From a virus (lineage: Duplodnaviria > Caudoviricetes): 64,000 bases of DNA. Every line of letters starts with the position of its first letter. The stretch's first letter is position 1. The notes beneath the pieces were generated by a model. It was given only the letters and a program-made list of their open reading frames with translations. It was not told where the DNA came from and searched no databases. The translations under genes and the position numbers were made by a program. The stretch is from positions 1-64,000 of the IMG/VR virus record IMGVR_UViG_2884366220_000001; one strand, given 5' to 3'. Shown here piece after piece: positions 8,766 to 41,513 of this stretch.

Positions 8766-8816
8766 GTCATCACGCCTGTCACGTCTGCCCCCCAGTGATG
8801 CCGGCACATTTGCCCC
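8766..8816 (+). promoter_or_regulatory. Late promoter motif, copy 1
   Basis: GTCATCACGCCTGTCACG-N21-CACATTTG-N4-ATG(8817). Confidence 0.8.
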
Positions 8817-9266
8817 ATGACTGATCTGAATTACGACCCGGTCAACAACATTGGGGGGCTATATCGAATCCGGTTTGTGCCAGTTGCTGGAGTAACTCCA
8901 ACCCTGGCCACCGGTACCCCAAATTTTCGCGATGGGTTCCGGTTCTATACCGCCTACGGTACCGAATCGACGCGAGGCTACGAAGAACGACAATCGAACA
9001 GCGATAACGGCCCGGTTTGGGATGTGACCGTTTCCGCCTTCTTACCCGGCGACAGTCCTGAACGGCGTGCTCAACTGGCCGAGATGGTGCGTCACCGATT
9101 CATCATTCAATGTGAGGATAACAATGGCCAGCTGCGGCAGGTCGGTAGTTATGAACAGCCGCTCGAACTGACCTATCAGTTCGTCACCGGCAAGGCTGTC
9201 GCAGATTTGCGCGGCTACGCCCTCACCTTCCGGGGCAGTCTCTCTGAGGCCCCGGCCATTCTTTGA
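8817..9266 (+). CDS. Phage structural protein, paralogue of the tail-tube-like protein at 12539
   Basis: Shared NNxGG N-terminus and FxPG / GS-x3-P pattern. Confidence 0.65.
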   Translation: MTDLNYDPVNNIGGLYRIRFVPVAGVTPTLATGTPNFRDGFRFYTAYGTESTRGYEERQSNSDNGPVWDVTVSAFLPGDSPERRAQLAEMVRHRFIIQCEDNNGQLRQVGSYEQPLELTYQFVTGKAVADLRGYALTFRGSLSEAPAIL

Positions 9267-9297
9267 GTATGCCTTGCTTTCATAACGGTGGTTTCTG

Positions 9298-9330
9298 AAC
9301 CCCCGCTGGTTTTACCGGCGGGGGTTTTTT
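9298..9330 (+). terminator. Intrinsic terminator
   Basis: AACCCCCGCTGG-TTTTA-CCGGCGGGGGTT followed by T run. Confidence 0.8.
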
Positions 9331-9347
9331 GTGGAATCTTCATTCGC

Positions 9348-9398
9348 GTCATCACGCCTGTCACGCCCGGCCCCTCGCAATAGGGGCAGTTTCGGGCC
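9348..9398 (+). promoter_or_regulatory. Late promoter motif, copy 2
   Basis: GTCATCACGCCTGTCACG-N21-CAGTTTCG-N4-ATG(9399). Confidence 0.8.
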
Positions 9399-10904
9399 AT
9401 GATTAGCCAATTTCAAATCCTTTCCGCCCTGCTACGCCACAAGTGGGCCATCGAACCCATCTGGGCCGAACAGCACCAAACGCTACTTGATAGCTACCTG
9501 GCTGGTAAGCTGGATTTGAAGCTGCTGCAACAAAACGCCATTGATGAGGCCGGGGGCGTCGATCCGATCAGCTCGATCGGCTACGTACTGGCGTCGGACG
9601 AGGTCGACACACCGCCCGGCGGCCCGGCCGTTACCGCCACTAACCCCCGCAACCGCTATGCGCTAGACAACCCTGACCTCCCCGAAAACAGCGTATTCGT
9701 CCTTGATATTCGCGGGCCGATTATGAAGGAAACCACGTGCTGCACACTAGGCACGGAGGACTACGCTAAACTGATTCGTCGTGCCTACGCACACCCCAAA
9801 ATCATCGGTATTGTCAACCTGGTCGATTCGCCAGGTGGCCAGCTGTTTGGTACCCCGACGCTGTACGACGCCATTCGAGATCCACAAAAGCCGGTTGTTT
9901 CGGTAGTATGCGAGGGACTCATGGCGTCGGCAGCGTACTGGCTGGCCTGCGGCTCCGACGAGATTCTGGCGACCCAGCAGACCGATATGATCGGCTCTAT
10001 TGGCGTATTCGTCAGCTTTCGGGACAACCGGAAGGCGCTGGCGCTGGCCGGTATCGAGGTTCACACGGTCTATTCTGACCGCTCAGCCGAGAAAAACAAA
10101 CCGTTCCGCGACGCACTGGAAGGCGATACAGCGGCCCTGACGGAAGATCTGAACCAGGCTGCCGACTTATTCCGTGTCGCCGTCGAAACCGGCCGTGGTG
10201 CCAAGCTGAAGCCCGTCACGAAGGGCGGTGCCGACGTGTTCAAAGGCGGTCTGTTCTACGCATCCAAAGCGATCGAGTTAGGGCTTATTGACGGCTTCGG
10301 CGACCTCGACGTGGCCGTAGCCCGCGTGGCGGAGCTGGCAAAGCAACCCCGCGCGACGGCCGTGGAACCTACGCCTGCCGAACCGACCGGCGACGGCAAC
10401 GATCTGGACGACGAACACGACAACGACAACGACCCTGAAGCTGACGCTTCCACGCCTGTCACTGAGCCTGTTCTGGCCAGCCAGGATTCTTCTGTTTCCC
10501 CAACTAATCAAACCGACACAACCATGTTTGGCGACAAACACAAACTCATTACGGCCCTTGCTGGCGTCGAGTCTTCGGCCATTACCGATGATCAGCTCAA
10601 CGCAATCAATGCTAACCTGGATGCTCAGAACATCAAAGGTATTCGCGTCATCTCACAAGGCTATTTGGACGAGATGACAACTAGTGCTACAGCGCTGACG
10701 ACCGCTCAGGAGCAGGTGTCGAAGCTGACCCAGGAGCGTGACCAGCTGCAATCAAAGGTCAACGAATACGGCTCGCAGCCTGGCGTGCTGGGTACGACCT
10801 CGCAGAAAACCGAAGAGCCACAGGTAGCGGCCGGCGATGACGAAGAAGTCATCTCGGAAACCGACGCCAAACTGCGCTCGATGGCCTCCCTGAAGGGCAA
10901 ATAA
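9399..10904 (+). CDS. S49-family prohead protease with C-terminal scaffold-like coiled coil
   Basis: DSPGG, MASAAYW and GSIGV motifs; acidic linker then coiled coil; directly upstream of capsid gene. Confidence 0.88.
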   Translation: MISQFQILSALLRHKWAIEPIWAEQHQTLLDSYLAGKLDLKLLQQNAIDEAGGVDPISSIGYVLASDEVDTPPGGPAVTATNPRNRYALDNPDLPENSVFVLDIRGPIMKETTCCTLGTEDYAKLIRRAYAHPKIIGIVNLVDSPGGQLFGTPTLYDAIRDPQKPVVSVVCEGLMASAAYWLACGSDEILATQQTDMIGSIGVFVSFRDNRKALALAGIEVHTVYSDRSAEKNKPFRDALEGDTAALTEDLNQAADLFRVAVETGRGAKLKPVTKGGADVFKGGLFYASKAIELGLIDGFGDLDVAVARVAELAKQPRATAVEPTPAEPTGDGNDLDDEHDNDNDPEADASTPVTEPVLASQDSSVSPTNQTDTTMFGDKHKLITALAGVESSAITDDQLNAINANLDAQNIKGIRVISQGYLDEMTTSATALTTAQEQVSKLTQERDQLQSKVNEYGSQPGVLGTTSQKTEEPQVAAGDDEEVISETDAKLRSMASLKGK

Positions 10905-10979
10905 CCTGATCGATCATCGACCGCCTTAGGCGGTCGATGATCGCAATTCTTACTCCGTAACTTCCTTAATCTCACAATT

Positions 10980-12056
10980 GTGGCAAAGACCCAAACCGAT
11001 CTGCAAGCGATTGCCGGCTACGCTGGCGAATACGCAGAAACGATTATTCTGGCCGTCATGCAGGCGCTCGACATCACCAAGGATGTCTCGGTGCTGACGA
11101 ACCTGAAGACATCAACCATCCTACCAAAATACGTTGCCAGCGAGGGGCTGCGGCCGTACAGTTCGGCTGTAAAAACGCCGAAAGGTCAGTCGGGTACGTT
11201 CAGCGCGCGTCGCATCGACCCACGTACGGCGATGAAGATTCTGGATATCATTCCGGAAGAATTCCGTGATACGTACCTGGCTCGTGGTCTGGCTGCCAAC
11301 GCCAAAGATTACCCACAGGGCTTCGGTCAGTACTTCTGGCTGGCACAAATTCTCAAAATCGCGGAAGAGATCAACGACAACATCTACCTGTCGATTGACC
11401 CCAAAACGGTTGCGCCATTCGATGCTACGGTGAACTACACCGTCGGAAGCAAAGTGTTCTTCGAGGAGAACTACTACCAGGTCGTAACGGCGACGACTGC
11501 TGGCCAGACGCCTACGAGCGTTCCTGCATCGTTTCTGGACATCAACAACAAATGCCTGGGTATCGGATTCGGTACCATCATCGCGCAGGAATACAACAGC
11601 CTTCCCGCTGCTAACCGTATTGCTACGGGCATTATCACCGATACCAATGCTTTCGACAAGGTATCGGGTATGTACAAAGCCATGCCGTCGAAAAAGCAGG
11701 CGTTGGGCGGTACCGCGTTTGTGTCGTACAACACCTACCAGAACTACCAGAGCAGCCTGCTCAACAAGTTCACTAATGGTACCTCGGCGTATGAAGTGCC
11801 CGGCAAACCCGGTATGCTGATTTTCGGCTCAGACGGTAAGTGGAACGTGCAGGCGGCCTCGTGGATGGGCAATTCGGGCCGGATCATCATGACCCAGCCG
11901 AAGAAAAACATGTTCATGGGCACCGACCAGCTGCCTGACCTGACGACGGTTGGTAACATGATCCCCCACATCCACGGCTTCCTGGCCAAGTTCCAGATGA
12001 TTCTGGCCTGCCAGTTCGCCGATATGGATACGCTGTTCGTAAACGACCAGGCGTAA
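10980..12056 (+). CDS. Major capsid protein with inserted CBM5/12-like domain
   Basis: 358 aa, immediately after the protease; insert FDATVNYTVGSKVFFEENYYQ. Confidence 0.72.
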   Translation: MAKTQTDLQAIAGYAGEYAETIILAVMQALDITKDVSVLTNLKTSTILPKYVASEGLRPYSSAVKTPKGQSGTFSARRIDPRTAMKILDIIPEEFRDTYLARGLAANAKDYPQGFGQYFWLAQILKIAEEINDNIYLSIDPKTVAPFDATVNYTVGSKVFFEENYYQVVTATTAGQTPTSVPASFLDINNKCLGIGFGTIIAQEYNSLPAANRIATGIITDTNAFDKVSGMYKAMPSKKQALGGTAFVSYNTYQNYQSSLLNKFTNGTSAYEVPGKPGMLIFGSDGKWNVQAASWMGNSGRIIMTQPKKNMFMGTDQLPDLTTVGNMIPHIHGFLAKFQMILACQFADMDTLFVNDQA

Positions 12057-12143
12057 TTCGACTTAACCCAGACTATTCTTCAACCCTGACGATTGGATGC
12101 CCGCGATAGGTGGGCATCCAATCATTCAAACAGACTTACTACT

Positions 12144-12470
12144 GTGGAACTCACTAAGGAACAGGAGGAAATAGAAGCCCTCAAATTACAACTGAAAGCG
12201 GCTAACGAAGCCAAAGAAGCCAGCGCCCGTCAAGTACTCGAGGCCGGTGAAGTGGTGCAGGATCTCAAGAAGCAATTGGCTGAGAAGCCTGCTGCTGACG
12301 AGGAAAAGACGTATGGCAAGGTCACTGTCGGCAAAGCGACGTATGATCTGGTCGTTCCTTCCTTCAACTACCTGGGTGAAATCGTCACCATCGACGTGCT
12401 CAACCAGAAGTCGAAACTCGCTGAGCAGCTGGTGAAGGACGGCGTATCGTTCCTGCAAAAAGCTGAGTAG
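12144..12470 (+). CDS. Hypothetical coiled-coil phage protein (GTG start)
   Basis: In-frame GTG downstream of an intergenic hairpin. Confidence 0.65.
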   Translation: MELTKEQEEIEALKLQLKAANEAKEASARQVLEAGEVVQDLKKQLAEKPAADEEKTYGKVTVGKATYDLVVPSFNYLGEIVTIDVLNQKSKLAEQLVKDGVSFLQKAE

Positions 12471-12538
12471 TTCAATCCATTCAGGTTAGACCGGTCGACA
12501 GACCGGTTTAACCGCTTCACTCCGTAACGACCCCAACA

Positions 12539-13071
12539 ATGGACTACACAAACCTTCTCGGCCCCGATGGTACCGAGAACAATATGGGGGTACCGAGCTG
12601 TTTTTCTATTTGATCTCGCACTCAAATATTAAAACGTTCGGCACGCCACCAGCCAACCCGGCTACGCCAGCTGATGCCTACGTGATTACAACTCCTCACG
12701 TGTGCAACACCGGAAAGAACTTCACTCAGGTCTACTGTACGCCCGATACCTCAGAACTGGAGGGCGGAATGAACGGCGAAATTGACGGCCGTAGCTTCAA
12801 AGTGACCTTCAAATTTTTCTATCCGGGTTCGAAGAAAGAGCTATTCGCCTTCAAGAACCGGGTTAAAAACGACAAGTTCGTTCTGGAGGTGCCGCTGTCT
12901 GACGGGACAATTATCCAGATCGGGTCGGCCAAATTTCCGGCCTACATCGCCCCCAGCTTTAAATCGGAAAAGATGTCAGGCCGTGGTAAAGGAGCGGAGT
13001 TCGAGGTTACGTGCTGGATGCCGGATATGCTGATTTACAGCGCAGCCATCCCGCTCACGCCAGCGGTTTAA
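12539..13071 (+). CDS. Major tail-tube-like protein; frameshift in G run 12586-12590
   Basis: ATG 12539 (MDYTNLLGPDGTENNMG) joins ORF 12610..13071 if G5 is read as G6; role inferred from size, position and beta-rich sequence. Confidence 0.6.
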
Positions 13072-13083
13072 CCAACCTCAGCC

Positions 13084-13287
13084 ATGCCGAAAGAAACAAC
13101 TAAGGCGGCTTCCACCAAAGGCATTGTCGGTCTGCTAGCGACCGACTCGATGCTGATCAGGTTCGCCGGGCGTGATTACGACCTGGCGAACCTATCGGCC
13201 GACGATGAGGCATACCTGCGTCAGTTTCCCGACCAGGTGCCCTATCTGCAAAAACCATTAGACGTGAGCAACCCTGCCAACGACTAG
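13084..13287 (+). CDS. Small hypothetical phage protein
   Basis: ATG ORF followed by terminator. Confidence 0.65.
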   Translation: MPKETTKAASTKGIVGLLATDSMLIRFAGRDYDLANLSADDEAYLRQFPDQVPYLQKPLDVSNPAND

Positions 13288-13304
13288 TACTGTGGAACGC
13301 CGAT

Positions 13305-13338
13305 AAGAAGCCTGCCGATTGGCGGGCTTCTTTCTTTC
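13305..13338 (+). terminator. Intrinsic terminator
   Basis: AAGAAGCCTGCC-GATT-GGCGGGCTTCTT followed by TCTTT. Confidence 0.7.
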
Positions 13339-13353
13339 AACCCTAACGCACTC

Positions 13354-14608: not shown

Positions 14609-14880
14609 AACTAACGGCTGAACAGCTGACCGAACTGGAGAGTCTGGCCAGCTACTTTTTCACTCCCGACGAATGCGCTATTGTACTGTCGATATCCACC
14701 GACGATCTGGAAATCGCACTGGAAGACGACACGCACCCGGCCTACAAAGCCTATCAGCGCGGCAAACTCAAATCGAAACTGGAGCTACGGAAATCAATCC
14801 TGACGCTGGCCAAGCAGGGTTCGTCGCCCGCGCAGACGATGGCCCTTCGCCTGCTCGATGAATCGGAATCACTCGATTAA
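14605..14880 (+). CDS. Small HTH-like packaging-region protein (terminase small subunit candidate)
   Basis: FTPDECAIVLSIS helix-turn-helix-like stretch; upstream of terL. Confidence 0.5.
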   Translation: MKLTAEQLTELESLASYFFTPDECAIVLSISTDDLEIALEDDTHPAYKAYQRGKLKSKLELRKSILTLAKQGSSPAQTMALRLLDESESLD

Positions 14881-14889
14881 CCCACCGAC

Positions 14890-15516
14890 ATGAACACTGA
14901 CGTAGGATTTCTTGACCCCGACGTACCGAGCCGCCACGACGATAAGTTCGACGCCATCGTTCGGTGGTACAACGATGACCGGGATATGGACGACCCGGCC
15001 CGGCGACAGCTGAGCAAATCACTCCAGGAGCAGTACGAGCGGTGGCAGTACATCTATTCCATCCTGACGCTGCCCAAAATCCGGTTTAAATCGGATACCA
15101 TGCTGGTAAAGCGGCTCAAAGAGAAGTGGCCGACGCTGTCGGATCGGGTGCTACGCTACGCCATTGCCGACACGCGCCGGTTCTACGCGCAGCTGGAGCA
15201 GCCTGTTCTCGACTGGGAGCGGGTTATGCTCATTACCAATATGAAACGGGCGATGGAGCGGGCGGAAAAGAAAGGTGATTTCAAATCGCTGGGAGCCATG
15301 TTCGGGCATTATATCAAGCTCATTGGTGCTGATAAGCCGCAGACGCCCGTCGACAACCGCACGATTATCAACTTCATCAACTTCAACCCGGAACAACTGG
15401 GAGGGAAGCAGATCCCGGATGATAAGCTGGAGGCACTTATTGCCCAGATGCAGGCCAGCGATCGTAAAAAACAACAAGCCCTTTTTGACGACTTCGAGGA
15501 TGTCTCAGCTGCCTGA
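14890..15516 (+). CDS. Hypothetical protein (terminase small subunit candidate)
   Basis: Overlaps the start of terL. Confidence 0.55.
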   Translation: MNTDVGFLDPDVPSRHDDKFDAIVRWYNDDRDMDDPARRQLSKSLQEQYERWQYIYSILTLPKIRFKSDTMLVKRLKEKWPTLSDRVLRYAIADTRRFYAQLEQPVLDWERVMLITNMKRAMERAEKKGDFKSLGAMFGHYIKLIGADKPQTPVDNRTIINFINFNPEQLGGKQIPDDKLEALIAQMQASDRKKQQALFDDFEDVSAA

Positions 15517-17233
15517 TCGTTACCAGATGGGGTCATTGCTGAGCGATGATCTCGATACAGCCGTAAAACTGGCGCAGGTTCCCCTCGACCCGCGTAAGTT
15601 GAGCGATGACGTAAAAATTGAGTCCAAACACTTCAATAAACCCCAGATCCGCTCTATGTCGGTTGGGGCCAATGAAGAATATGCAGTCTGGGGTCGGGGT
15701 ACCGGTAAATCGGAAGGGCTTATTGCCCCGCGTTCGTTTCGAAACGTCGACGTGATGCCCAGGGCGCACGGTTGTTTCGCTGGTTCGACCTACCTGCAAT
15801 TGCTGGAGCGGACGCTGCCCCCCGTGATCAAAGGCTGGGAACAGATGGGCTGGCAGCGCGGCCGTGACTTCTGGATTCGGGAGCGACCACCCAAGCACCT
15901 GAACATTCCGACGCCGATTGTTGGCCCTGTCGTTTCGGATCACTGTATTTTCTTTAAAAACGGCGCGGTGGCGTCGATGGTGTCGCAGGATCGGCCGGGT
16001 TCGGCCAACGGTAAAACGGTGCATTGGATCGTCGGTGACGAAGCGAAGTTCCTGGATAAAGCGAAGCTCGACAACGAACTGTTGATGACCAACCGGGGCG
16101 ACGAACGCTATTTCGGGGGCATTCCGGAGTTTCACAGCCTGCTTTTCTGCACCGATATGCCCACATCGAAGGCCGCGATGTGGATACTCGAGGAGGAGAA
16201 GCGGATGGATCGGCAGCGGGTCGAACTGCTGCTGAGCATCCGGGTAAAGATCTATGAGTTGTATGGTCAGCTGATCGCTCACCCCAGCAAGCGGGTGTCG
16301 ATCATGAAGGCCATTCAGAAAAAGCAGGCCGAGTGGGATAGCATCCGGGCTAAATGCGTGTTTTTCTCGGAAGCATCGACGCTTGACAACATTCACGGCT
16401 TCGGAGCGGACAACATCCGACGGCTGCGCGAGAAGCTGCCCGCGTTCATCTTCAACACGGCTATTCTGAATCAGCGGCCGTTCCTGACCGAAAACGCGTT
16501 CTATCCGGATCTGGACGAACACCACTTCTACGACAAGGAAGATCACGCCTACATCAACAGCTTCAATATTGAGGATTTCGGTAAGGGGCTGTTCAATGAT
16601 TCGCGCAAAGATGCCGACGTCGACAAATACCGGCCGCTCGATATTGGTATTGACAACGGTGCATCGATCAACGCACTGCTGGTAGGGCAGCCCCACGGCC
16701 GCACCTATCGCATTCTGAAGGAACTGTACGTATTGCACCCTGAGCGGGTTGTCGATCTGGCTAGGGCATTCTGCGAATACTACCGTTACCATCCCTGCAA
16801 AGAGGTCAATTACTTCTATGACCATACGGCGATCGGTACATCGGCCGTAAGTAACGCATCCCCAGCCGAGGTATTCATCGACTACCTGATGGAAGCAGGC
16901 TGGATCGTACACCGTCATTTTATTGGAGCTACGCTCGATCCTGAATGGCGGTATGAACTGTGGGGTATGTGCCTGCGGGGTGGTGGTGATCGGCTGTTCA
17001 AGATTGCCATGAATCGGCACAACTGCGAGTATGTACGCATCTCGATGCAGTCTACCCAGATTGCCCAGGGCACGACCGGCTTTCGCAAGAACAAGAATGA
17101 TGAGAAGAACAGTGAGCTGGACCAACGGACAACCACCCACTTCAGCGATGCAATCGACACCCTGCTAGTAGGGGCACACATGGTACATCGCTTCGAAGAT
17201 CCTGTTGCCTTCAAATCCATATTCATGAATTAA
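15500..17233 (+). CDS. terL: Terminase large subunit
   Basis: Walker A WGRGTGKS, Walker B WIVGDEAK, RNase H-like DIGIDNG and C-terminal HFSDAID. Confidence 0.85.
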   Translation: MSQLPDRYQMGSLLSDDLDTAVKLAQVPLDPRKLSDDVKIESKHFNKPQIRSMSVGANEEYAVWGRGTGKSEGLIAPRSFRNVDVMPRAHGCFAGSTYLQLLERTLPPVIKGWEQMGWQRGRDFWIRERPPKHLNIPTPIVGPVVSDHCIFFKNGAVASMVSQDRPGSANGKTVHWIVGDEAKFLDKAKLDNELLMTNRGDERYFGGIPEFHSLLFCTDMPTSKAAMWILEEEKRMDRQRVELLLSIRVKIYELYGQLIAHPSKRVSIMKAIQKKQAEWDSIRAKCVFFSEASTLDNIHGFGADNIRRLREKLPAFIFNTAILNQRPFLTENAFYPDLDEHHFYDKEDHAYINSFNIEDFGKGLFNDSRKDADVDKYRPLDIGIDNGASINALLVGQPHGRTYRILKELYVLHPERVVDLARAFCEYYRYHPCKEVNYFYDHTAIGTSAVSNASPAEVFIDYLMEAGWIVHRHFIGATLDPEWRYELWGMCLRGGGDRLFKIAMNRHNCEYVRISMQSTQIAQGTTGFRKNKNDEKNSELDQRTTTHFSDAIDTLLVGAHMVHRFEDPVAFKSIFMN

Positions 17234-17256: not shown

Positions 17257-17295
17257 AGCGGCCCGGTCAGATCTGACCGGGCCGCTTCGTTTTTG
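17257..17295 (+). terminator. Terminator built on a 30-bp perfect palindrome
   Basis: AGCGGCCCGGTCAGATCTGACCGGGCCGCT then TCGTTTTT. Confidence 0.75.
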
Positions 17296-17869: not shown

Positions 17870-18778
17870 ATGGAAGGTACAAAACGCGACCACTTCGCAG
17901 AGGTCACCGGGAAAATTATTGCCCAATTGGAACAGGGTATCGTACCGTGGCATCAGCCGTGGGGCTTCTGCGAACCCGCACAAAATCACTTCACCGGCCA
18001 CCGCTACCGCGGTATCAATTCGCTACTGATGCTGATGGAGGACTATAAAACGCCCTACTTCGCGACCATCAAGCAGATTAACGAAGCCGGTGGGCGCGTC
18101 AAGAAGGGAAGCAAATCGACACAGGTTTATTTTCACGACTGTATTTACAAGGACAAAAACGGCGCACGGCTAACCCCCGACGTTGCTTTACCCCGCATCA
18201 AAGCCGGTGATTCGACCGTCAGAAAGTACCCGTTTATTCGCCTGTTTCCGGTGTTTAATATGGATTCGGTGGAAGGGTGCCCCGTTAAGTCAGCCATACG
18301 CCGGAGCGAAACCGATAACCACGAGATAGCGGTCTGTGCGGACTTCGTTACCGCCCTGAATTTGGGCAACCAGTTGCGCCACGCCAACGTTGACGAAGCC
18401 TTTTTTCACAAAAAGGATGATTACGTGCAGATGCCCCCGCTGGACGTGTTCCGCAGTTCGGAATTGTACTACGGTGTTTTGTTCCACGAGCTGACCCACT
18501 GGACGGGACACGCCGACCGGTTGAATCGAAAGACGTTGACCGAAGCCCTGAAATTTGGCGACACCAATTACTCACTGGAAGAACTGACCGCCGAACTCGG
18601 CAGTACGTTTCTGTGCAATACGTTCGGTATTGATACGCCCGACACCCTACAGAACCAAGCCGCCTACATTGCCAACTGGCTGGGCGTGCTCAAAAAGAAC
18701 AGCCGCTTTATCTGGGATGCCGCCAGCGACGCACAGGCCGCATTTACGTACCTGATCGACCGCGCAGGTACTTATTAG
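17870..18778 (+). CDS. ardC: ArdC-family anti-restriction protein (ssDNA-binding + zincin-like domain)
   Basis: PWHQPW, YRGINSLLL, FHELTHWTGH, YSLEELTAE and AAYIANWL motifs. Confidence 0.9.
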   Translation: MEGTKRDHFAEVTGKIIAQLEQGIVPWHQPWGFCEPAQNHFTGHRYRGINSLLMLMEDYKTPYFATIKQINEAGGRVKKGSKSTQVYFHDCIYKDKNGARLTPDVALPRIKAGDSTVRKYPFIRLFPVFNMDSVEGCPVKSAIRRSETDNHEIAVCADFVTALNLGNQLRHANVDEAFFHKKDDYVQMPPLDVFRSSELYYGVLFHELTHWTGHADRLNRKTLTEALKFGDTNYSLEELTAELGSTFLCNTFGIDTPDTLQNQAAYIANWLGVLKKNSRFIWDAASDAQAAFTYLIDRAGTY

Positions 18779-21727: not shown

Positions 21728-21806
21728 TGTGCTGCCTTGTTAGGATACACAAATCTACGAAAACCACCGCGAATTTACGACGGTTTGCCGTCCTTTTTTC
21801 GACCTC

Positions 21807-21857
21807 GTCATCACGCCTGTCACGCCCCGCCCTACCTGACGCTGTCAACTTCGGCCT
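21807..21857 (+). promoter_or_regulatory. Late promoter motif, copy 3
   Basis: GTCATCACGCCTGTCACG-N21-CAACTTCG-N4-ATG(21858). Confidence 0.8.
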
Positions 21858-22133
21858 ATGATGCTGAAGTTGACAGATGTAGTACGCCTGATGCGTAAAA
21901 GTGAGTCGGGGCACGCCAGCCCGGGCAGGCCCCGCCCGTTTACCATTCAATACGTGACGGCCGACCGCACCCGCAACAAGGGTGGCGAGGTCCGCACGTT
22001 GAAGCGGGCTGTACTGCTCACCAAAAAGCGCACCGATAACCGGATCGTCGATCTGCAACCCCTCGGTACCACCGACATCGTGCGCGTGCATCTGGATCTG
22101 ATCCTTCGTTTCAATAATCAGCCTGTTGCATGA
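21858..22133 (+). CDS. Small basic phage protein upstream of portal
   Basis: ATG ORF coupled to the portal gene. Confidence 0.7.
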   Translation: MMLKLTDVVRLMRKSESGHASPGRPRPFTIQYVTADRTRNKGGEVRTLKRAVLLTKKRTDNRIVDLQPLGTTDIVRVHLDLILRFNNQPVA

Positions 22134-25470: not shown

Positions 25471-25830
25471 ATGGAAAACTACGCATCCATTATCCCCGAG
25501 CTACTCAAGCTCTCACCCATTGCGGCCGTGCTGTTTATCTGCCTGGCTGTTGTCTGGAAATACGTCCAGAAGAAAGACGAGGCCCTGACGGCCGCGCAGG
25601 CCCACACCAACGATAAGCTGCTGGAGATGCAGGAGAAGATGATTGTCAGCAACAATAACGTGGCCACCAGTCACGTGACGCTGGCTACTGCGATCGGCAA
25701 ACTATCGGAAACGATCGACGACAACCAGGCGCAGGTCATGCGCGAACTGGACGAGATCAAAACCGGCACCAAAGTTCGGTCGCTCCCCGGCCGTAGTCGT
25801 ACAGTTTCCGAACCTAAAGCGCAAGCCTGA
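25471..25830 (+). CDS. Holin-like single-TM protein
   Basis: N-terminal TM then coiled coil, directly before the endolysin. Confidence 0.5.
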   Translation: MENYASIIPELLKLSPIAAVLFICLAVVWKYVQKKDEALTAAQAHTNDKLLEMQEKMIVSNNNVATSHVTLATAIGKLSETIDDNQAQVMRELDEIKTGTKVRSLPGRSRTVSEPKAQA

Positions 25831-26432
25831 TGAAACCCGTTCTTCAACCCGCTGACTTCGGTCGAGCAGCCCAGTCGTTGGGCTGCTCGATAGCCGCTAT
25901 CCGGGCGGTGGCCGAAGTCGAATCCGACGGCGGAGGTTTTCTAAAAGGTAAGATTCTGGTCACTCGCTTTGAAGGCCACATTTTTCGGCAGAAAACAGAC
26001 GGACGGTTTGATAAATCGCACCCGACGTTGTCGCACCGGTACATGGAAGATTGCCCTTACAACAAAGGGACGCTGTCCGATCTGCGCAGGCTGGAGCTGG
26101 CGCGTCAGCTGGCGGGCGACGTGGCGTTTGAGTGTGCCAGCTACGGCATGTTTCAGATCATGGGGTTTCATTATGCGCTGCTGGGTTACAAGTCGGCCTA
26201 CGAAATGGTGCAGGCATTCAACCAGAGCGAATCAGTTCAGCTCGATGCATTCGTACTGTTCATTCGTGGACAGGGACTTGCCGACGAGTTGCAGGATCTG
26301 CGCTTTGCCGATTTCGCCTACCGATACAATGGAGCCAACTACCGGGCCAATCGCTACGATATCAAAATGCTCAACGCCTACGGCTACTACCTGCCTAATC
26401 CGCTGACGCCGAACCGCTACAAACTCATCTGA
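25830..26432 (+). CDS. Endolysin, N-acetylmuramidase (DUF3380-like)
   Basis: AVAEVES, RFEGHIF, SYGMFQIMGFH and YNGANY motifs. Confidence 0.9.
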   Translation: MKPVLQPADFGRAAQSLGCSIAAIRAVAEVESDGGGFLKGKILVTRFEGHIFRQKTDGRFDKSHPTLSHRYMEDCPYNKGTLSDLRRLELARQLAGDVAFECASYGMFQIMGFHYALLGYKSAYEMVQAFNQSESVQLDAFVLFIRGQGLADELQDLRFADFAYRYNGANYRANRYDIKMLNAYGYYLPNPLTPNRYKLI

Positions 26433-27879: not shown

Positions 27880-27935
27880 ATGGCCATCCAGAATCGACAC
27901 GTTACCGGTACGTGTCGATACGCTGTACATGGGCT

Positions 27936-27986
27936 GTCATCACGCCTGTCACGGCCTGAGCCATAGCGCGCGCAGAATTTCGCGCT
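27936..27986 (+). promoter_or_regulatory. Late promoter motif, copy 4
   Basis: GTCATCACGCCTGTCACG-N21-GAATTTCG-N4-ATG(27987). Confidence 0.8.
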
Positions 27987-29983
27987 ATGGCCGTTTCTAT
28001 TGTTTCCAGTCCCGATCCACACGCACTCTCTCAGGGCGGACGTACTACGTTCGTTTTTCAGGGGCCGGGCGTGTGGCCAGCAGTGGACAAAAGGCGGTCT
28101 GTACGCTGGCTATCACCGGGGCTATCGCCGACGGTACCATCCTGAATTTTCGCTGGAATGGAATCACCCGCGCCGTCGTCGCCAAAACGGCACCCGCTGC
28201 CCCCAACGAGTTTGCCGCTGGGGGCAACAGCGTCGACTACGTCAACGCGCTGGCCGACTGGTTTTCCAGGAATTTTCCCTTTCAGCAGGACTTCGTGGTT
28301 ACGCGGGGCGTCGACATCGGCCCGCTTCGTACCATTCAATTCACTGCGAAGAAAGCCGGGGCTGCCTACAACATCACCCCGTTCGGAGGTTCGTTTGCCC
28401 TGGTCGGCGGCTCAACGCTGCCCTATCAGCTGACGGTGGCTACCAAAGGGGCCGACCCCGTAGTACGAAGCCAATACAGCGTGTACGCCGAACTGCACAT
28501 GCAGGGAATCGGCGAGAATGCCCCCTACGAGCTGATCTTCCCGACGTTTATCGACATCGACGATAAAGGACAGGGGATCTGGGACGTGGGTGATCTGCTG
28601 CACGCCCGGCTGGAGGACGATCTGCCCGTCTGGAATTTTCCCACGACGACCTATTGCGCCAAATCGGCCCGTAACTACCTCATCAAATACGCCGAAGCGT
28701 ACGGAAACCCCCGTCAGGTTGGGGCGCTCGCAACCGACACGACACGCCGGATCTACCGGGGCGGGGCTGACTACGTCCACCGCGCCGGCGCAGGCTTCGA
28801 TCTGTTGCCGGTCACTCAGACCAACAGCGGTGGTATTCTTCAGTACCGGGCGCTTCGGCTCGGCTCGGCCCATCGGTACGTGCGTGTCGACGAGCCCCAG
28901 TATTTAACCTTTGTTAATTCGACCGGCGTAGCGGCTGCTGCCGTTTCGCTGTCGGTTACGCTCATCTTCAGTGATAAGACGGAACTGACGGCCGTCACGC
29001 CCTACGATCCGGTGATTTTCCCGATCGGGGGCAAGTGGTGCTTCGCCGTGGGAGTCACGCAGCTGAAGTTGTTGGACAAAGTGCCGGCCGGCAAAACGCT
29101 GGTGGAATACCTGGTGCAGCTGGTCGCACCAACGGATATTTCGCCCATCTACCGGTTTACGCTGAATGTGCAGCATGAGCCGTATACGCGCTACTTCGCC
29201 TACATCAATTCGCTGGGTGCGCTCGAAACACTGGCCACCTATGGCAAGGGTTCGCGTGAGCTGAGCCTGTTCTCGGAGAGTGCCGACCGGTATCTGCCGG
29301 CCGGTTACGACGTGTCGGGCGGGCAGTTCGTGCAGTATGACTTGCAGGTGCAGCAGCAGACCGAAGTGACCACCGGTTTTCGCCGGGCGGCTGAACTGCG
29401 CGGCTGGACCGACTTCTACCGCTCGCCCCTGAAGTTTCACCTTCGCTACGCTCAGGCGCTGCCGATCGGCGTAATCAGTAAATCGATCAAACAGGGTAAA
29501 GATGGCGATACCCTGTTTGCTCATGCTTTTCAGTACCAATACCTCTACCGCGACGATTTCTACACCGTCAGCGTGGAAGAAGAAGCGGCTCAGGGGGATG
29601 CCTACCCCCCGCAGAACTTCTCAGCGGCCAGTGGCGGTACCATTTCGATTCAGCCTGTCACGGTAGTACCCAGCGTCGACAAGACCGTGCCCGACGTGGT
29701 GCGTACCCTGACGGTCGACAAGGTTCTGTCGTTTTCCGTGGCCAGTGCCAAGGTCGACCAGCTGGCGGCTCGTAATCTGCTCGACGAGCCGACCGGCCGG
29801 CTGCTGTTTCGGCCCTTCGACCAGGCGATCGACTTCATTAAGGACATCGCCAACCGGCCCAATAACCGGGACGGCTACGGCCTGTCCGACGTGCTGACCC
29901 AGAAAGAAACCCAGCAACAGATTCTGGACCTGGTCCCGCTCCGGGTAGCCTTAAAATCCTGGACTGACCAAATCGAACCCTGA
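27987..29983 (+). CDS. Tail/baseplate structural protein; probable start 27987 with a -1 frameshift near 28034
   Basis: MAVSIVSSPDPHALSQ joins the long frame (GRTYYVRF...); internal YINSLGALET motif; beta-rich. Confidence 0.65.
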
Positions 29984-35040: not shown

Positions 35041-35045
35041 TCGCC

Positions 35046-35351: not shown

Positions 35352-35386
35352 ACCTTTATTCCATCATTCTTTAACGAGTCAACACC

Positions 35387-36600: not shown

Positions 36601-36608
36601 TGCTCACG

Positions 36609-36666
36609 CGTCATCACGCCCGTCACGAACCGCCCGATCTGGACCTACCAGCTTCGGGCGGTTTTT
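36609..36666 (+). promoter_or_regulatory. Late promoter motif, copy 5, fused to an intrinsic terminator
   Basis: GTCATCACGCCCGTCACG-N21-CAGCTTCG; AACCGCCCGA...TCGGGCGGTT + T run. Confidence 0.8.
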
Positions 36667-36679
36667 TATCTCTAACTCT

Positions 36680-37306
36680 ATGAAGCACCTCATTTTGTGG
36701 GCGGGCCTGCTGCTCTCGCTCAGCTGCTCAGCGCAAACCATTCAGCCCTTCGACATGACCGTGTTCCGGGGCCAGATCAGCGAAAAAACCCTGCTCCTGT
36801 TGCTGGCAGACTCCTCCAGGAGTGTGAGCGCAACGGCCTACTGGGATCGGTTCGGGCGTATGCTGCCAGCTGATCAGCAGCCCATCCTGATTCGCTCCGC
36901 CCGGCCGGGAACCAGCCTGGTCGTTCGGCTGCAAAACACGCTCAATCTGCCGGCATCTGGTGGGTGGATCGAAATTCGTGTCGGTGGCCAGATCCGGGCC
37001 AGCGGCCGGCTGATCGTTACCCAGGTCCGTTCGCCAACGACGGCTTCCATCGACGCCCCCAGTGGTGTCGGCGAGGGTACGGTAAAGTTTTGGCGGCTCA
37101 GCAACGCCGTCAGCGGACAGGAAATCCGCCACGGCTCAAGCAGCCGCTTGGTCAGTGCCCAGTTCTTCCGCGACGATACCGGGCAACTAGATCCGCTAAT
37201 CCGGATCGAGATCATCGACGAGAACCGGATTCGACTCATTGCCCCGCCCGGCGAAACCGTCAATGGCCAGCTCACGACTATCATCATTCAGAAGCTTACC
37301 CAATAA
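36680..37306 (+). CDS. Signal-peptide protein, beta-rich
   Basis: MKHLILWAGLLLSLSCSA|Q. Confidence 0.75.
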   Translation: MKHLILWAGLLLSLSCSAQTIQPFDMTVFRGQISEKTLLLLLADSSRSVSATAYWDRFGRMLPADQQPILIRSARPGTSLVVRLQNTLNLPASGGWIEIRVGGQIRASGRLIVTQVRSPTTASIDAPSGVGEGTVKFWRLSNAVSGQEIRHGSSSRLVSAQFFRDDTGQLDPLIRIEIIDENRIRLIAPPGETVNGQLTTIIIQKLTQ

Positions 37307-37336
37307 TCAATCCGTAACAATTAACCATCCATCTCA

Positions 37337-37927
37337 ATGAAACCATTTCGTGGTTTACTCGCCGGCCTACTGCTGGCAACCGTTTCTCTTTCCGTCCAGG
37401 CGCAGACGCAGGTAGCCAAGCGAGACACGGCCGCTACGACCCAGGCCAATCGACTCCAGTTGGGAGCCGATGACACGCGTATGGGTCAAAAAGGATCTAC
37501 GGGCAACTTCCGGGGCTTCGCTTTCAAAGACGAAGTTGTTGCTGCCCAGGGGTCGGCCGTGCAGACGGTCAATAACAAAACGCCAACGGCGGGCAACATC
37601 AATATTTCTGCCACTGATGTCGGCCTGGGTAACGTCAGTAATACCTCCGACGCTAACAAGCCAGTTTCAACGGCTCAGCAGCAGGCGTTCGATCTGAAGG
37701 CCAATCAGGCCACATCGGTTTACAGTGACGCGGTGGCCAGCTATTCTGCCCTTTCCAGCTACACAGTGCCCAACGGGAAAGCCTACCTGATCACGGTGCG
37801 AAGCGATGAACGCTACAAGAAGAGGGATGGCAGTAACTCGATCAATACGCTGTACTGGAAATCGGTCTCCAGCGACGGCTCGACGACGACTCTGTATAAA
37901 GTCACCTTTATCGACGAGTCGAATTGA
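37337..37927 (+). CDS. Signal-peptide protein with phage tail-fibre repeat
   Basis: MKPFRGLLAGLLLATVSLSVQA|Q; VQTVNNKT and DVGLGNVSNTSDANKPVSTAQQ. Confidence 0.8.
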   Translation: MKPFRGLLAGLLLATVSLSVQAQTQVAKRDTAATTQANRLQLGADDTRMGQKGSTGNFRGFAFKDEVVAAQGSAVQTVNNKTPTAGNINISATDVGLGNVSNTSDANKPVSTAQQQAFDLKANQATSVYSDAVASYSALSSYTVPNGKAYLITVRSDERYKKRDGSNSINTLYWKSVSSDGSTTTLYKVTFIDESN

Positions 37928-40245
37928 TCCGGATGCTGACACTGCTACTCACGCTCGTAGTGAGCGTGAGTAGCTATGGGCAATTAGCGACGAAGGCGCA
38001 GTGGGGTGTGGCCCGGTCGACGGATAGCCTGAACGAAACGCGTGACGGCTTTCTGCTTGGGCCAGGAGCCGGCCGCTACCTGAAAGTGTTGATTGACTCC
38101 AATACGGCCAACTTGGTACGTAAGCAGCCGCTACTGACGACCAGTAGTAATGTCGTGAGTGGCACGCTAACGGCCGGTAAAATCTTTCTCCAGGGAGCTA
38201 CTGCCGCTGAAACCGCTAGAAACAGCATCCTGCCGCTTCCGGGTGGTGGGGTCGAGTTCGGCGGTAATCCACGGCTTTCAGCTGCGGGCATTGGCGCGGG
38301 CGGGAATCTCGACGTGAAGCCGGACGGCAACCTGTATTTCTTCAGCAACGGTAACAGTAGCCGGTCGCTGTTTCTGCACAACGAAGGTATTTCTGTCAAC
38401 CGGAACACCAACACGGCCCGCGCCGGGTTCGACATCGGCTCAGACGTTTGGGTTGATGGTAACCTGAAACTACCTACCGTAGACGGCCGCTGGTTCGGCT
38501 TCGATGGCTTGTCTTCCGGTCAAACCGTCCGGCTTCGTATGGGCGACCCCACCGGGGGACTCGATGTAACATCAGGCGCGGGCATGACGGTAAAGGCTTA
38601 CCACGGCATTATCGTACAGAATCAGGCCGGGGGCGCTGGACCAGCGCTGCGAGTCAATGGCTTGTCGAGCGGTCAGAACCTGTTCGAGTTTTACGACGCA
38701 GCGAGCGCGTTACGGGCGTCGCTGTCGCAGGCGGGTATTTTGTCGTTGGGCGCAGGCGGGGGCGTCCGATTCGCTGACGGCTCGACGCAGACGACAGCAG
38801 CGGGTACGGCCGCGCCGATATCTGTTACGATCGCAGCGAGTGAAACGGCCCTATTGAATGCGATCGCAGCGGCTACCGTTCCGACCGTCGTCAGTTGGAC
38901 CGGCGTCATAACGCAGACGCAAACGATTGTCATAAATAACAAGACTGAACTGTATTTGGACTGCTACGGTAAGGGCGGGCTCAGTCGATCGAATTCGCCC
39001 GATCAGATTTTGGTAAATGGCAATAACAAAAACGTCGGCTTTCGCGGTATCGCCTTTGTGAACACAAATACAACCGGAACCAACGGTGCGCAAATCCGAA
39101 TCAACGAACAAGGGCCGGAAGACGGGATTTTTATTGAAGACAATACCTTTCTGAACGCAGGCACGAACAATAATTCGATTGCGTCGAATGCGTCAGGCGG
39201 GGCGCAGGACCAGTTCATTACGTCGCACAAACGTTTCTACATTCGCCGGAATACATTCGGCGGTTCGGTTGGCAGCGGTACGGGTATTTCGCGCATGGCG
39301 ATCGAATTACTTAATCACTCAGCAGACGGGCCGGGGCCGATTCAATACTGCGAAGAATTTGTAATTGAGGATAACAAAATTTACAAACCGGGTACGGGTA
39401 GCGACGACGGTTTCGGTATTTCGTTGTCGGGTTTGATCCGTAAAAGCCGGATCAAAGGGAATACAGTTATTGACGCCGAACGGTATTCTATCGAAATCGT
39501 TTTGGGGGCGAATATTCTCGTCGAGGATAACACGGTCATCGATATTGACAACTCGTCAGTAGGCATTAGCATTTCTAACGGCTATAAAGCTGAAAACGCA
39601 ATACCGGCAGGCGCAAATCAGAATATAATCGTAAACCGGAACCGGATAAACGTAAAACAACGGGCGATCCTAGCGTACTACGTCAGCAATTCGATATACA
39701 CGCGAAACATCTTCAAAAGTCAGCAGCGTAACGAGTTTATTGGGAATGAAAACGTTTTCGCGAACAATACTATCGACGTTTACAACGACTGGAACGCCTT
39801 GTATTTTGCCCGTTCGAGCCGAAACAAGATCGTCGATAATACAGCGACGACGTACTATCACGGTAACGGCATTTACACGTCGTCAGTTATATTCTTTGAC
39901 GCCGGATCAAACGACAGTTACGTGCGTCTGAACACGCTCACGCGGCCGACGAATTCGTATAACGTTCACATTGAACAGGCCAGCGGAACAAGCAACGACA
40001 CCGGGGCGGGGTTCCAGTCGGCAACCAATACGCTTAACACCTACGCGGAGAAACGACCTAACACCCTGGGGAATGACCAGATACAAGTCGCAACTTACCA
40101 GGATATGATTAACCTGGGCACGGTCACCGTGTCGACTACCGTCTACGTCCTTGCCGACGAGAAAAATAATCCCGGCGCACTGAGTGTGTACACGCTGCTA
40201 CCATCGGGCAAACGCGTTCGGTTTGCCGCCATCGAAGACAATTAA
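37924..40245 (+). CDS. Signal-peptide tailspike-like protein with right-handed beta-helix (depolymerase candidate)
   Basis: ...VVSVSSYG|Q; GVRFADGSTQTTA fibre motif; repeated IEDN/IRRN/IKGN beta-helix rungs. Confidence 0.78.
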   Translation: MIRMLTLLLTLVVSVSSYGQLATKAQWGVARSTDSLNETRDGFLLGPGAGRYLKVLIDSNTANLVRKQPLLTTSSNVVSGTLTAGKIFLQGATAAETARNSILPLPGGGVEFGGNPRLSAAGIGAGGNLDVKPDGNLYFFSNGNSSRSLFLHNEGISVNRNTNTARAGFDIGSDVWVDGNLKLPTVDGRWFGFDGLSSGQTVRLRMGDPTGGLDVTSGAGMTVKAYHGIIVQNQAGGAGPALRVNGLSSGQNLFEFYDAASALRASLSQAGILSLGAGGGVRFADGSTQTTAAGTAAPISVTIAASETALLNAIAAATVPTVVSWTGVITQTQTIVINNKTELYLDCYGKGGLSRSNSPDQILVNGNNKNVGFRGIAFVNTNTTGTNGAQIRINEQGPEDGIFIEDNTFLNAGTNNNSIASNASGGAQDQFITSHKRFYIRRNTFGGSVGSGTGISRMAIELLNHSADGPGPIQYCEEFVIEDNKIYKPGTGSDDGFGISLSGLIRKSRIKGNTVIDAERYSIEIVLGANILVEDNTVIDIDNSSVGISISNGYKAENAIPAGANQNIIVNRNRINVKQRAILAYYVSNSIYTRNIFKSQQRNEFIGNENVFANNTIDVYNDWNALYFARSSRNKIVDNTATTYYHGNGIYTSSVIFFDAGSNDSYVRLNTLTRPTNSYNVHIEQASGTSNDTGAGFQSATNTLNTYAEKRPNTLGNDQIQVATYQDMINLGTVTVSTTVYVLADEKNNPGALSVYTLLPSGKRVRFAAIEDN

Positions 40246-40258
40246 CCGCATAACGTCC

Positions 40259-41449
40259 ATGAAAAAAGCACTAATTATAGCCCTGCTGAGTCTGGCCACC
40301 CTCAGCGCATTTGCTCAGTTCCCCGTCGATCAGGCCCGGCCAGGTCGGGTGTACACATCGATTAAAGACCTGGCCCAATCGGAAGGGCAGGAATATTACC
40401 TCGGTAGCCGGGGGAAAATCGTCGTCACCGGTACGGTGTCGGCCACGTCGACCAGTGAGGTCAGCTATACGTTTACCTCCGGCAACCTGCCCAGCTACTT
40501 CGCGCCGGCCGGCATCGTGGTGCTGCACACGATGGATTACCGGTTCGACACCAAAATCAAAGGGTACTACTACACCCCGTTCGGTAACTCATCGACGTTT
40601 GCGACCTACACCAATACGCAGCCGTTTTTCAGCGCCAACGCCAACGAACGACTGACCCGCCCGGTTAGTCAGTACCTGCTCCCCACCCAGTCGCCGACGG
40701 CCGCCGTGCTGACCGAAGCCGCCATCCCGGTTAGTAATACCGCAACCTTACCAACCATCGGATCGACCCAGTCGCTGACCATTGGCTACGAAACGGGCTG
40801 GTACGGTAACCTGATCTGGGACATGAACATTGGAGCCAGTAAGTGTGTCGACATCTGGGGCGATAGCATCTGGAATGCGGTGGGCCCTACCACCTGGTCG
40901 AATAATTTCGCCTACCTGTTGCGGGATTATTTTACCGACAAGGGCTATAACTACCGGCTCAGAAACCGCAGTGTGTCCGGCTCGACCACGCTCGATCACC
41001 GCAATTTCTGGTACGCGGGCCGAACGCTGGCTGACCCCCCGGCGGTGGTATTTATTCCGCTCGGCACCAACGATCCGGACGCGATGAGTACCAGCGACAA
41101 TATTTTGTACCTGGTCAACAAAGCCCTTACGACCTACACCACGCCGACCAACAAAGTGCGGGTTGTCGTGTGTGGTATCCTGCCCAAACTCAACAGTACC
41201 GCCGAAACCACCGCGAGTAATAAGCGCAGTGCGATTAAATCGGCGCTCGAAGGCCACGCCAAGTATAACTCGCAGGTTTTCTATGTCAACTCCCTGACGA
41301 CCGCCTGGACGGCGACGACGGCCAGTAACTATCTGGCCGATGGTGTTCATCCGGTCGACGCGGCCGAACTGACTGCTTGGGGCTTACTGAAGACCTGGCT
41401 CGATGGCTACAACGTGACCGGCGGCAATACCATTTTTTCGGCCCGTTAA
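40259..41449 (+). CDS. Signal-peptide SGNH/GDSL hydrolase (esterase/deacetylase)
   Basis: MKKALIIALLSLATLSAFA|Q; WGDSI, NRSVSG, LGTND and DGVHP blocks. Confidence 0.85.
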   Translation: MKKALIIALLSLATLSAFAQFPVDQARPGRVYTSIKDLAQSEGQEYYLGSRGKIVVTGTVSATSTSEVSYTFTSGNLPSYFAPAGIVVLHTMDYRFDTKIKGYYYTPFGNSSTFATYTNTQPFFSANANERLTRPVSQYLLPTQSPTAAVLTEAAIPVSNTATLPTIGSTQSLTIGYETGWYGNLIWDMNIGASKCVDIWGDSIWNAVGPTTWSNNFAYLLRDYFTDKGYNYRLRNRSVSGSTTLDHRNFWYAGRTLADPPAVVFIPLGTNDPDAMSTSDNILYLVNKALTTYTTPTNKVRVVVCGILPKLNSTAETTASNKRSAIKSALEGHAKYNSQVFYVNSLTTAWTATTASNYLADGVHPVDAAELTAWGLLKTWLDGYNVTGGNTIFSAR

Positions 41450-41455
41450 AACGCC

Positions 41456-41513
41456 CGTCATCACGCCCGTCACGAACCGCCCGAACTGGATCGACCAGCT
41501 TCGGGCGGTTTTT
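41456..41513 (+). promoter_or_regulatory. Late promoter motif, copy 6, fused to an intrinsic terminator
   Basis: 55 of 58 bases identical to 36609-36666. Confidence 0.8.

Follow-up and report, generated by a model that had tools for sequence, protein, structure and literature searches.

Six exactly spaced 18-mers in a Spirosoma-like prophage: candidate activator-dependent late promoters, mostly leaderless

Introduction

Which promoters serve the late genes of a phage whose host belongs to the Bacteroidota, and what turns them on? The question is raised by a stretch of 64,000 nucleotides (nt), positions 1 to 64,000 of IMG/VR virus record IMGVR_UViG_2884366220_000001 (Duplodnaviria; Caudoviricetes). 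We call this stretch the window; by its sequence it is a prophage, and its host is Spirosoma-like. Among named organisms, Spirosoma panaciterrae has the nearest relative of this locus; the host genome has 6,049,537 bases with a guanine-plus-cytosine (GC) content of 55%. A preliminary description of the window had drawn attention to an 18-mer, GTCATCACGCCYGTCACG, that recurs in front of presumed late genes at an invariant distance from a second, promoter-like box. To our knowledge, the timing of transcription in Bacteroidota phages (soil, marine, fish-associated flavobacteria) is almost unstudied.

On balance we think it probable that the 18-mers are upstream recognition elements of activator-dependent late promoters, mostly leaderless, and that the most likely factor to read them is P0001, the 197-amino-acid (aa) product of the gene at 8164..8757 on the + strand. 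The argument leads from the sites, their spacing, their conservation, their restriction to phage DNA and their co-occurrence with one gene family to a predicted transcription start, a proposed dependence on an activator and a putative identity for the factor.

Six copies of one element in a fixed layout

A pattern search of the window allowing up to three mismatches returned six exact copies of GTCATCACGCCYGTCACG and no other match, all six on the + strand and all intergenic. Copies 1 to 4 (8766..8783, 9348..9365, 21807..21824 and 27936..27953) have T at the Y position, and copies 5 and 6 (36610..36627 and 41457..41474) have C. In 100 dinucleotide shuffles of the window the mean number of copies was 0.11 and the maximum 1. 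A scan of the whole host genome with up to two mismatches gave eight matches, namely the six window copies and two with two mismatches each; the reversed pattern, as a control, gave 1 and 1, the same level as the two extra matches, and no exact 18-mer lies outside the six copies.

Downstream of each copy stands a second box of the form (C/G)AnnTT(T/C)G, separated from the 18-mer by 21 nt in six of six cases. In order the boxes are CACATTTG (8805-8812), CAGTTTCG (9387-9394), CAACTTCG (21846-21853), GAATTTCG (27975-27982), and CAGCTTCG twice (36649-36656 and 41496-41503). An ATG follows 4 nt past the second box at the first four copies: at 8817, the start of the 149-aa P0002; at 9399, the start of an S49 head maturation protease; at 21858; and at 27987. 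At copies 5 and 6 the ATG lies 23 and 24 nt past the box, at 36680 and 41528. When the six regions are aligned, invariance is confined to the 18-mer, some positions of the 8-mer and a small number of bases at the flanks, and the 21-nt spacer is unconserved. The complete layout, CTGTC-N24-nAnnTTYG-N4-5-ATG, has four matches in the genome of 6.05 megabases (Mb), every one inside the prophage.

The number, strand and intergenic placing of the copies, the constant 21-nt gap and the four ATGs at 4 nt all agree with the preliminary description. It had also noted that TCACG is present twice within the 18-mer, 9 nt apart, which is correct; we dropped this direct repeat as a conserved feature, since the 18-mer variants of related prophages do not keep it. 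Its further statement that each copy heads a structural operon stands in part: genes for a head protease, terminase, endolysin and tail proteins do lie downstream, but many other downstream genes are unannotated.

Close relatives carry the layout with boxes of their own

Related loci were found through the P0001-family protein itself, not through the box. Of 401 genomes sampled from the family of the host, 11 have a match to P0001, G000 among them, and a collection of 5.8 billion proteins holds 12 relatives. The set of close relatives used here consists of seven further prophages, drawn from six genomes and from an IMG/VR record that corresponds to one of these. Each of the seven has its own variant of the 18-mer, in 4-5 copies on the gene strand: GTCATCACGCCTGTAACG in G309a, GTCATCACG(C/G)(T/G/C)TGTCGCG in G309b, GTCATCGCGGGTGTCGCG in G030, GTCTCATCGGGTGTCGCG in G204, GTG(T/C)AGGGTGTCGCG in G058, GTCACCG(G/A)G(C/G)TTGTCGC(G/A) in G293 and GGCATTCCGTCTGTTACG in G321 (S. 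panaciterrae). Unbiased counts of 14-mers in G030 and G204 return the box as the most repeated word.

The sites are orthologous: they come 3' of the P0001 homologue and 5' of the genes that begin MTDL, MNR (protease), MIKV and MPVT, with head, lysis and tail genes downstream. The motif search in related prophages that had been suggested at the outset thus finds the layout at orthologous positions in seven further prophages, and in the window and six of the seven relatives the first box comes directly after the stop codon of the P0001-family gene. Counted over 39 sites in 8 prophages of 7 genomes, the window's prophage included, 18-mer and second box stand 21 nt apart in 35 cases and 20 nt apart in the other 4. 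Sixteen sites have the next start codon 4 nt past the box and nine have it 5 nt past; in four more the distance is 7-8 nt, in six it is 23-37 nt, and for the last four no open reading frame (ORF) was found. Three distant genome relatives (G046, G106 and G028) gave no multi-copy box in a simple k-mer or pattern search; G046b and G106 each have one box-plus-ATG site, just after the P0001 homologue.

The two prophages of G309 share one genome and differ in their box variants, which argues that the specificity belongs to the phage and not to the host. This observation bears on the suggestion that a host factor, either an alternative sigma or a host regulator, reads the boxes, the phage borrowing the signal of a host regulon. 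Promoters of extracytoplasmic function (ECF) sigma factors have a -35/-10 spacing of 16-17 nt, and sigma-54 promoters have the form GG-N10-GC; the present layout fits neither, for the 21 nt are invariant, TGTCACG comes without GG, and no TTGC stands 4 nt downstream. A host regulon would moreover have to accommodate a box that varies between prophages of one genus, even within one genome, and of which neither a copy nor the full layout lies outside the prophage in the 6.05 Mb. The suggestion can draw on the conservation of the TGTC core across phages of different hosts and on the many ECF sigma factors that Bacteroidota carry (PMC7366714). We consider a host factor very improbable.

Promoter geometry

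The primary sigma factor of the Bacteroidota uses TAnnTTTG near -7 and TTTG near -33 (PMC7366714), and Flavobacterium psychrophilum has its sigma-A box, TAnnTTTG, at positions -12 to -5 (PMC9723704). Under the F. psychrophilum geometry the second box of the window would occupy -12 to -5, an ATG 4 nt further on would fall on +1, and the 18-mer would extend over about -51 to -34. In Bacteroides fragilis the -33 TTTG lies 19-21 nt upstream of the -7 box; here, likewise, the upstream element ends 21 nt before the second box.

The host's own genes offer a check on this geometry. TAnnTTTG is enriched before them (329 of 2758 upstream windows on the coding strand vs 97 on the opposite strand), and the distance from this box to a nearby ATG peaks at 4 nt (20 genes, with 7 at 5 nt and 5 at 3 nt), which supports a +1 on the ATG at the 4-nt sites. 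By the same counts, leaderless-type layouts of box and ATG are a small minority in the host. CAnnTTCG is not enriched before host genes (81 vs 82).

The second box fits the -7 box by position relative to the ATG and departs from it in sequence. Its consensus over the 39 sites is CAnnTTCG, with CA at the start of 26 boxes and TTCG at the end of 23; only 3 start with TA and 10 end with TTTG. The preliminary description had the -7 box weakened at its first T, and that T is indeed mostly C, but a second position, the seventh T, is mostly C as well. The statement that the 18-mer replaces the -33 element holds as a description of the layout, at least under the geometry just cited: the place of the TTTG is taken by the 3' end of the 18-mer (CACG, CGCG, AACG or TACG). 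Leaderless starts are predicted at 25 of the 39 sites, compared with the 3.7-5.5% of short or leaderless mRNAs reported for Bacteroides thetaiotaomicron and F. psychrophilum (PMC7366714, PMC9723704).

We propose the following course of events. The 18-mer, at about -51 to -34, would take the place of the host -33 TTTG, and CAnnTTCG would act as a degenerate -7 box, so that the late promoters would be weak and silent with host RNA polymerase alone. A phage-encoded protein would switch them on, reading the TGTC-type core together with the phage-specific 5' half of the element. At four of the window's sites transcription would begin on the A of the ATG and yield leaderless late mRNAs; at copies 5 and 6 it would begin inside the T-run of a hairpin and yield leaders of about 19-20 nt. 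The factor would be P0001, encoded just upstream of the first late promoter.

Distant and cultured phages

Fifteen IMG/VR loci carry distant P0001 relatives, about 20-25% identical, and a metagenome scan for further relatives added one extra locus only. In the 15 loci CTGTCCTT occurs 35 times, and all but 3 of these occurrences (32) are on the gene strand. TT(T/C)G stands at the window's offset (CTGTCn plus 23 nt to the box) in 27 of the 32 gene-strand occurrences, and an ATG 3-6 nt past the box in 16 of them; on the other strand the counts are 0 of 3 for the box and 0 of 3 for the ATG. At least one gene-strand site with its box is present in 11 of the 15 loci. At four of the IMG/VR loci (L090, L092, L093 and L098) we also noticed direct and inverted repeats of GTGGACA(C) in the gap 3' of the family gene.

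Five cultured phages were chosen for having protease or terminase genes in common with the prophage. A profile hidden Markov model (HMM) detects a family member in all five, annotated in each as a hypothetical protein; tblastn with P0001 and P0047 gave no match in the cultured phages, where the family is detected by HMM only. The members are gp34 of Flavobacterium phage 1H (HMM 1e-8), gp41 of Cellulophaga phage Ingeline_1 (2e-5), gp39 of Polaribacter phage Leef_1 (5e-25), gp42 of Flavobacterium phage laban6-1 (3e-16) and an unnamed ORF at 8977-9450 of 'Microcystis' phage Mea-Yong924-1 (L104, MZ447863.1; 2e-7). Four of the five phages have 4-6 copies of a repeat with the TGTC core, most of them before operons: ATGTCTTAAA four times in 1H, TGTCCTTTTAA six times in Ingeline_1, TGTCCTTTT six times in Leef_1 and ACACGCTGTCCTT five times in Mea-Yong924-1. 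These repeats mostly lie 22-25 nt upstream of a TAnnTTTG-like box, and several have an ATG 3-6 nt past it.

The layout is widely conserved and robustly real. To go by these sequences, a TGTC core at nearly the same distance is common to a wide group of phages, and the system is not peculiar to this prophage.

In Mea-Yong924-1 each of the five ACACGCTGTCCTT boxes is followed by ..TTTG, and four have an ATG or GTG 3-5 nt later. The phage is filed under a cyanobacterial host; its promoter layout is Bacteroidota-style, and its true host may deserve a second look.

P0001 as the candidate factor

The P0001 gene ends 8 nt before copy 1, and its family is the only unannotated gene present in every examined phage that has the layout. 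The protein has no Pfam match and no PHROG match, and a PHROG search with all 58 family members gave none. A profile search among 1.84 billion representatives found 52 relatives at E ≤ 1e-3, none of them annotated and none reaching the threshold for a Pfam family; two long outliers aside, their lengths are 79-215 aa. In the ESM Atlas, P0001 groups with hypothetical proteins of viruses and Bacteroidota, in clusters that have up to 745 members.

The AlphaFold (AF2) model of P0001, built on the 58-sequence alignment, has a predicted local distance difference test score (pLDDT) of 91.2 and a predicted template modelling score (pTM) of 0.87, with an N-terminal alpha/beta part and a C-terminal helical part. 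A Foldseek search of the Protein Data Bank (PDB) with the model gave no match at E ≤ 1e-3, a wide VIA-align search nothing at Z ≥ 5, and a sequence-profile search of the PDB nothing below E 0.2; compared with viral proteins, the model has one significant structural match, the Leef_1 protein (E 2.4e-5). Residues 121-177 show a weak likeness to many helix-turn-helix (HTH) or winged-helix DNA-binding domains, at Z 3.2-3.8, and this C-terminal three-helix part probably binds the DNA.

Within the last helix of this region R168 is invariant in the family, and the residue before it varies with the box. Where the box ends TGTCGCG, residue 167 is L (5 of 5 phages); where it ends TGT(C/A/T)AC(G/T), residue 167 is Y or W (4 of 4 phages). 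We take this covariation between residue 167 and base 16 of the box as a lead that points to P0001 as the box reader.

Two other assignments of the protein have to be weighed here. One keeps the activator-dependent late promoters and makes the factor another phage protein, with P0001 serving, for example, in DNA packaging or replication. P0001 is assigned by position only, many small early genes of the prophage are unannotated, the cultured relatives encode LuxR-type and other regulators, and the C-terminal helices of P0001 resemble a small-terminase DNA-binding domain (Z 3.6). Set against this, the prophage has no detectable homologue of the LuxR-type or other regulators just named, and in a domain scan of 64 window ORFs neither GerE nor any other regulator domain came up outside host-side genes; the presence of the P0001 family in every examined phage with the layout, and the covariation at residue 167, also speak for P0001. 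We give the assignment to another protein a small chance.

The other assignment makes the P0001 family a sigma-like specificity subunit that replaces sigma-A and itself reads both the TGTC element and the CAnnTTCG box. The size of the family, 150-200 aa, falls within the range of small phage sigma-like factors. The second box is off the host consensus at two positions and unenriched before host genes, and the family is conserved with both elements across phages of hosts with GC fractions from 0.30 to 0.55. P0001 and 46 relatives, however, lack a Pfam sigma-70 domain, and neither Foldseek nor VIA-align gives a significant structural match to a sigma factor (the sole sigma entry has E 2.3 and probability 0.08), a result that a distant relation could escape. 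In distant relatives, moreover, the TTTG of the box is host-like and TA is often retained too, consistent with sigma-A as the reader. A sigma-like P0001 seems to us unlikely.

Hairpins and transcription units

A hairpin of 10 base pairs (bp) plus T6 precedes copy 2 (9300-9330), a terminator-like hairpin and then a T-run precede copy 3 (21779-21792), and a strong terminator-like hairpin of 13 pairs lies at 17257..17286 on the + strand, 3' of the terminase large subunit homologue. Together these indicate that the copies head separate units, and the hairpin at 17257..17286 is likely to be the end of the unit that begins at copy 2.

At copies 5 and 6 hairpin and box coincide. The copies are near-identical over 57 nt (36610-36667 and 41457-41513), which hold the 18-mer, a GC-rich terminator-like hairpin and a T-run. 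The hairpin at copy 5 (36630-36661, z -5.7) has the box in its 3' arm and T6 at 36662-36667; that at copy 6 (41477-41508, z -6.2) likewise has the box inside the 3' arm, with T5 at 41509-41513. To judge from their sequence, these two sites look like the terminator of the preceding operon fused to a promoter, whose transcript would begin in the T-run with about 19-20 nt of leader. The preliminary description had transcripts beginning at or near the ATG; by the geometry cited above the predicted +1 does fall on the ATG in four copies, but copies 5 and 6 are predicted to have leaders and to start in the T-run of terminator-like hairpins. The two 57-nt cassettes suggest the duplication, inside the tail region, of a single promoter-terminator module, and equivalents of these two sites were not found in the seven close-relative prophages.

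Several other sites have inverted repeats that span box and ATG, among them copy 4, where an 11-bp repeat (27960-27970 with 27981-27991) covers both. Structures of this kind raise the question of whether the 18-mer belongs to an RNA-level element or a terminator, acting in antitermination, processing or at the end of an operon, with the promoter-like box incidental. The strong hairpins and T-runs at 36610 and 41457 are what such an explanation has in its favour, together with the stems at the other sites. The structure is not universal: against mononucleotide shuffles the mean z over the 39 sites is -0.8, with 7 sites below -2 and 23 above -1, and we rejected the hairpin as a defining feature on these numbers. 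Conservation falls on the sequence and on its exact distance from a promoter-type box, not on pairing; the spacer is variable, without consistent covariation, and an Rfam scan of the window at gathering thresholds gave 0 matches. An RNA-level role has, in our estimate, hardly any probability.

The ATG at 27987 is out of frame with a long ORF at 27929-29983. Orthologues of the gene, 650-1600 aa long and beginning MPVT..., place the frame switch near 28045-28050. An assembly indel would account for it, or else a real frameshift in a large late gene, in which case the prophage may be defective.

Weighing the activator reading

Several observations count against activator-dependent promoters read by P0001. 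At 10 of the 39 sites the ATG is at least 23 nt off or there is no clear ORF, and the box-overlapping hairpins at the 7 sites with z below -2 are not explained by a pure promoter model. CAnnTTCG is not a host-type box, and something other than host sigma-A could read it. Phage laban6-1 encodes a family member, yet a repeated TGTC-type promoter box was not found in it, and no box comes directly after the family gene of Mea-Yong924-1 or of Leef_1. On the protein side, the likeness of the P0001 model to DNA-binding domains is weak (best Z 4.4 in the VIA-align search) and no stronger than suggestive, the link between P0001 and the box is one of position and co-occurrence in the sequences compared, and the split at residue 167 needs two changes, or at least one, on a poorly resolved protein tree.

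With these points included, we still hold recognition of the 18-mers by an activator, most likely P0001, to be the probable explanation. A broader claim is possible, and we advance it tentatively, at somewhat less than even confidence. The P0001 family, with 1H gp34, Ingeline_1 gp41, Leef_1 gp39 and hundreds of uncultured relatives, may be an unrecognised class of phage promoter-specificity factor of unmatched fold, which would redirect Bacteroidota RNA polymerase to TGTC-N~25-nAnnTTYG. One system would then time the late genes across Duneviridae, Helgolandviridae and related prophages, largely via leaderless mRNAs in a phylum where these are rare.

Other features of the prophage

Ahead of the P0001 gene the window has a primase gene (2102-5599), and in the long gap 5' of gene 8164, at 7795-7965, three CCCTGA face about eight TCAGGG across an AT-rich core at 7828-7870. 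From its sequence this array looks like an iteron-type origin or an operator array, and it might control the timing of production of the candidate factor.

The S49 head maturation protease gene extends over 9399-10904. The terminase large subunit homologue (15275-17233) is 39% identical to a protein annotated as terminase large subunit. An ArdC-like anti-restriction or zincin peptidase gene at 17870-18778 lies between two late units, after the terminator at 17257-17286 and without an 18-mer in front. Further on come a weak portal match at 22130, an N-acetylmuramidase endolysin (25830-26432), a tail-fibre-like protein at 37337, one of more than one in the prophage, and a tape measure protein (44638-48093). 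A tRNA scan of the window found none.

Upstream of the window, beside host genes, are an HTH_3 repressor-like gene on the opposite strand and an LRR-Roc-COR gene. The LRR-Roc-COR protein is 1047 aa long (L040, 14840-17983, - strand), and its gene lies in an island of 28-35% GC at the left end of the prophage, beside the HTH gene. Towards the other end, 58000-64000 has 36-48% GC and contains a serine resolvase, a KAP-family nucleoside triphosphatase, two tyrosine integrases and an HTH gene; this stretch is probably a mobile island in its own right, adjoining the prophage.

Implications

Should the activator reading be true, one short sequence rule would locate the late promoters in a large group of Bacteroidota phages and prophages, and the same rule would name the likely regulator among many unannotated genes. 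Leaderless translation, rare in the phylum (3.7-5.5% of mRNAs), would be the norm for late genes. The box variants with their cognate factors would also amount to orthogonal switchable promoters for the Bacteroidota, where genetic tools are scarce. The layout might mark the host phylum of uncultured phages, one carrier being filed under Microcystis. Cultured phage-host pairs exist for phages that bear the layout.

Comparison with known systems

The preliminary description knew of no account of this late-control system. We found none of the motif, of a function for the P0001 family or of leaderless late genes in Bacteroidota phages in the full-text literature, a body that leaves subscription journals and supplements outside; the paper describing Ingeline and Leef, supplements aside, does not contain the word 'promoter' (PMC8776804).

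The six sites are spread over 33 kb, four of them abutting start codons, and no Q-family Pfam match was found, so the arrangement is not of the lambda Q type, in which one late promoter and then a terminator go with a Q-family protein. Closer parallels are found among phages with activator-dependent promoters. In phage P2, Ogr, a zinc protein of 72 aa, has as its site a dyad, TGT-N12-ACA, with its centre near -55. As in P2 Ogr and P4 Delta, where four or so late operons each have an activator site, a small phage-encoded factor would act here; unlike the Ogr site, the 18-mer abuts -34, and P0001, at 197 aa, has no zinc-finger motif that we noted.

T4 middle promoters have a MotA box at -30 and are used with MotA plus AsiA in what is called 'sigma appropriation'. 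There, as proposed here, an asymmetric phage-specific box replaces the upstream element and the downstream box is read by the host primary sigma. The downstream box of the prophage is, in contrast, degenerate and not consensus, no co-factor has been identified, and no MotA or AsiA Pfam match was found in the scanned window and upstream ORFs.

In phage Mu the late promoters Plys, PI, PP and Pmom are activated by protein C, and Mor acts at Pm. The prophage resembles Mu in having several dispersed late promoters with a usable downstream box and, overlapping the -35 region, a phage-specific activator site instead of the host box. Such dispersed sites stand before late operons six times in the window and 4-5 times in each of the seven relatives, and the activator gene, here the candidate P0001, is placed at the boundary of early and late genes. 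The prophage differs from Mu in its Bacteroidota host with -33/-7 geometry, in the unmatched fold of the candidate factor and in an 18-mer that is asymmetric and not a dyad; nor did a scan of 64 ORFs in the window and 13 upstream of it find a Mor/C-family Pfam domain. While membership in any of these classes thus fails on the protein side, the logic, by analogy, would match that of the activator-dependent promoters of Mu C, P2 Ogr and T4 MotA/AsiA.

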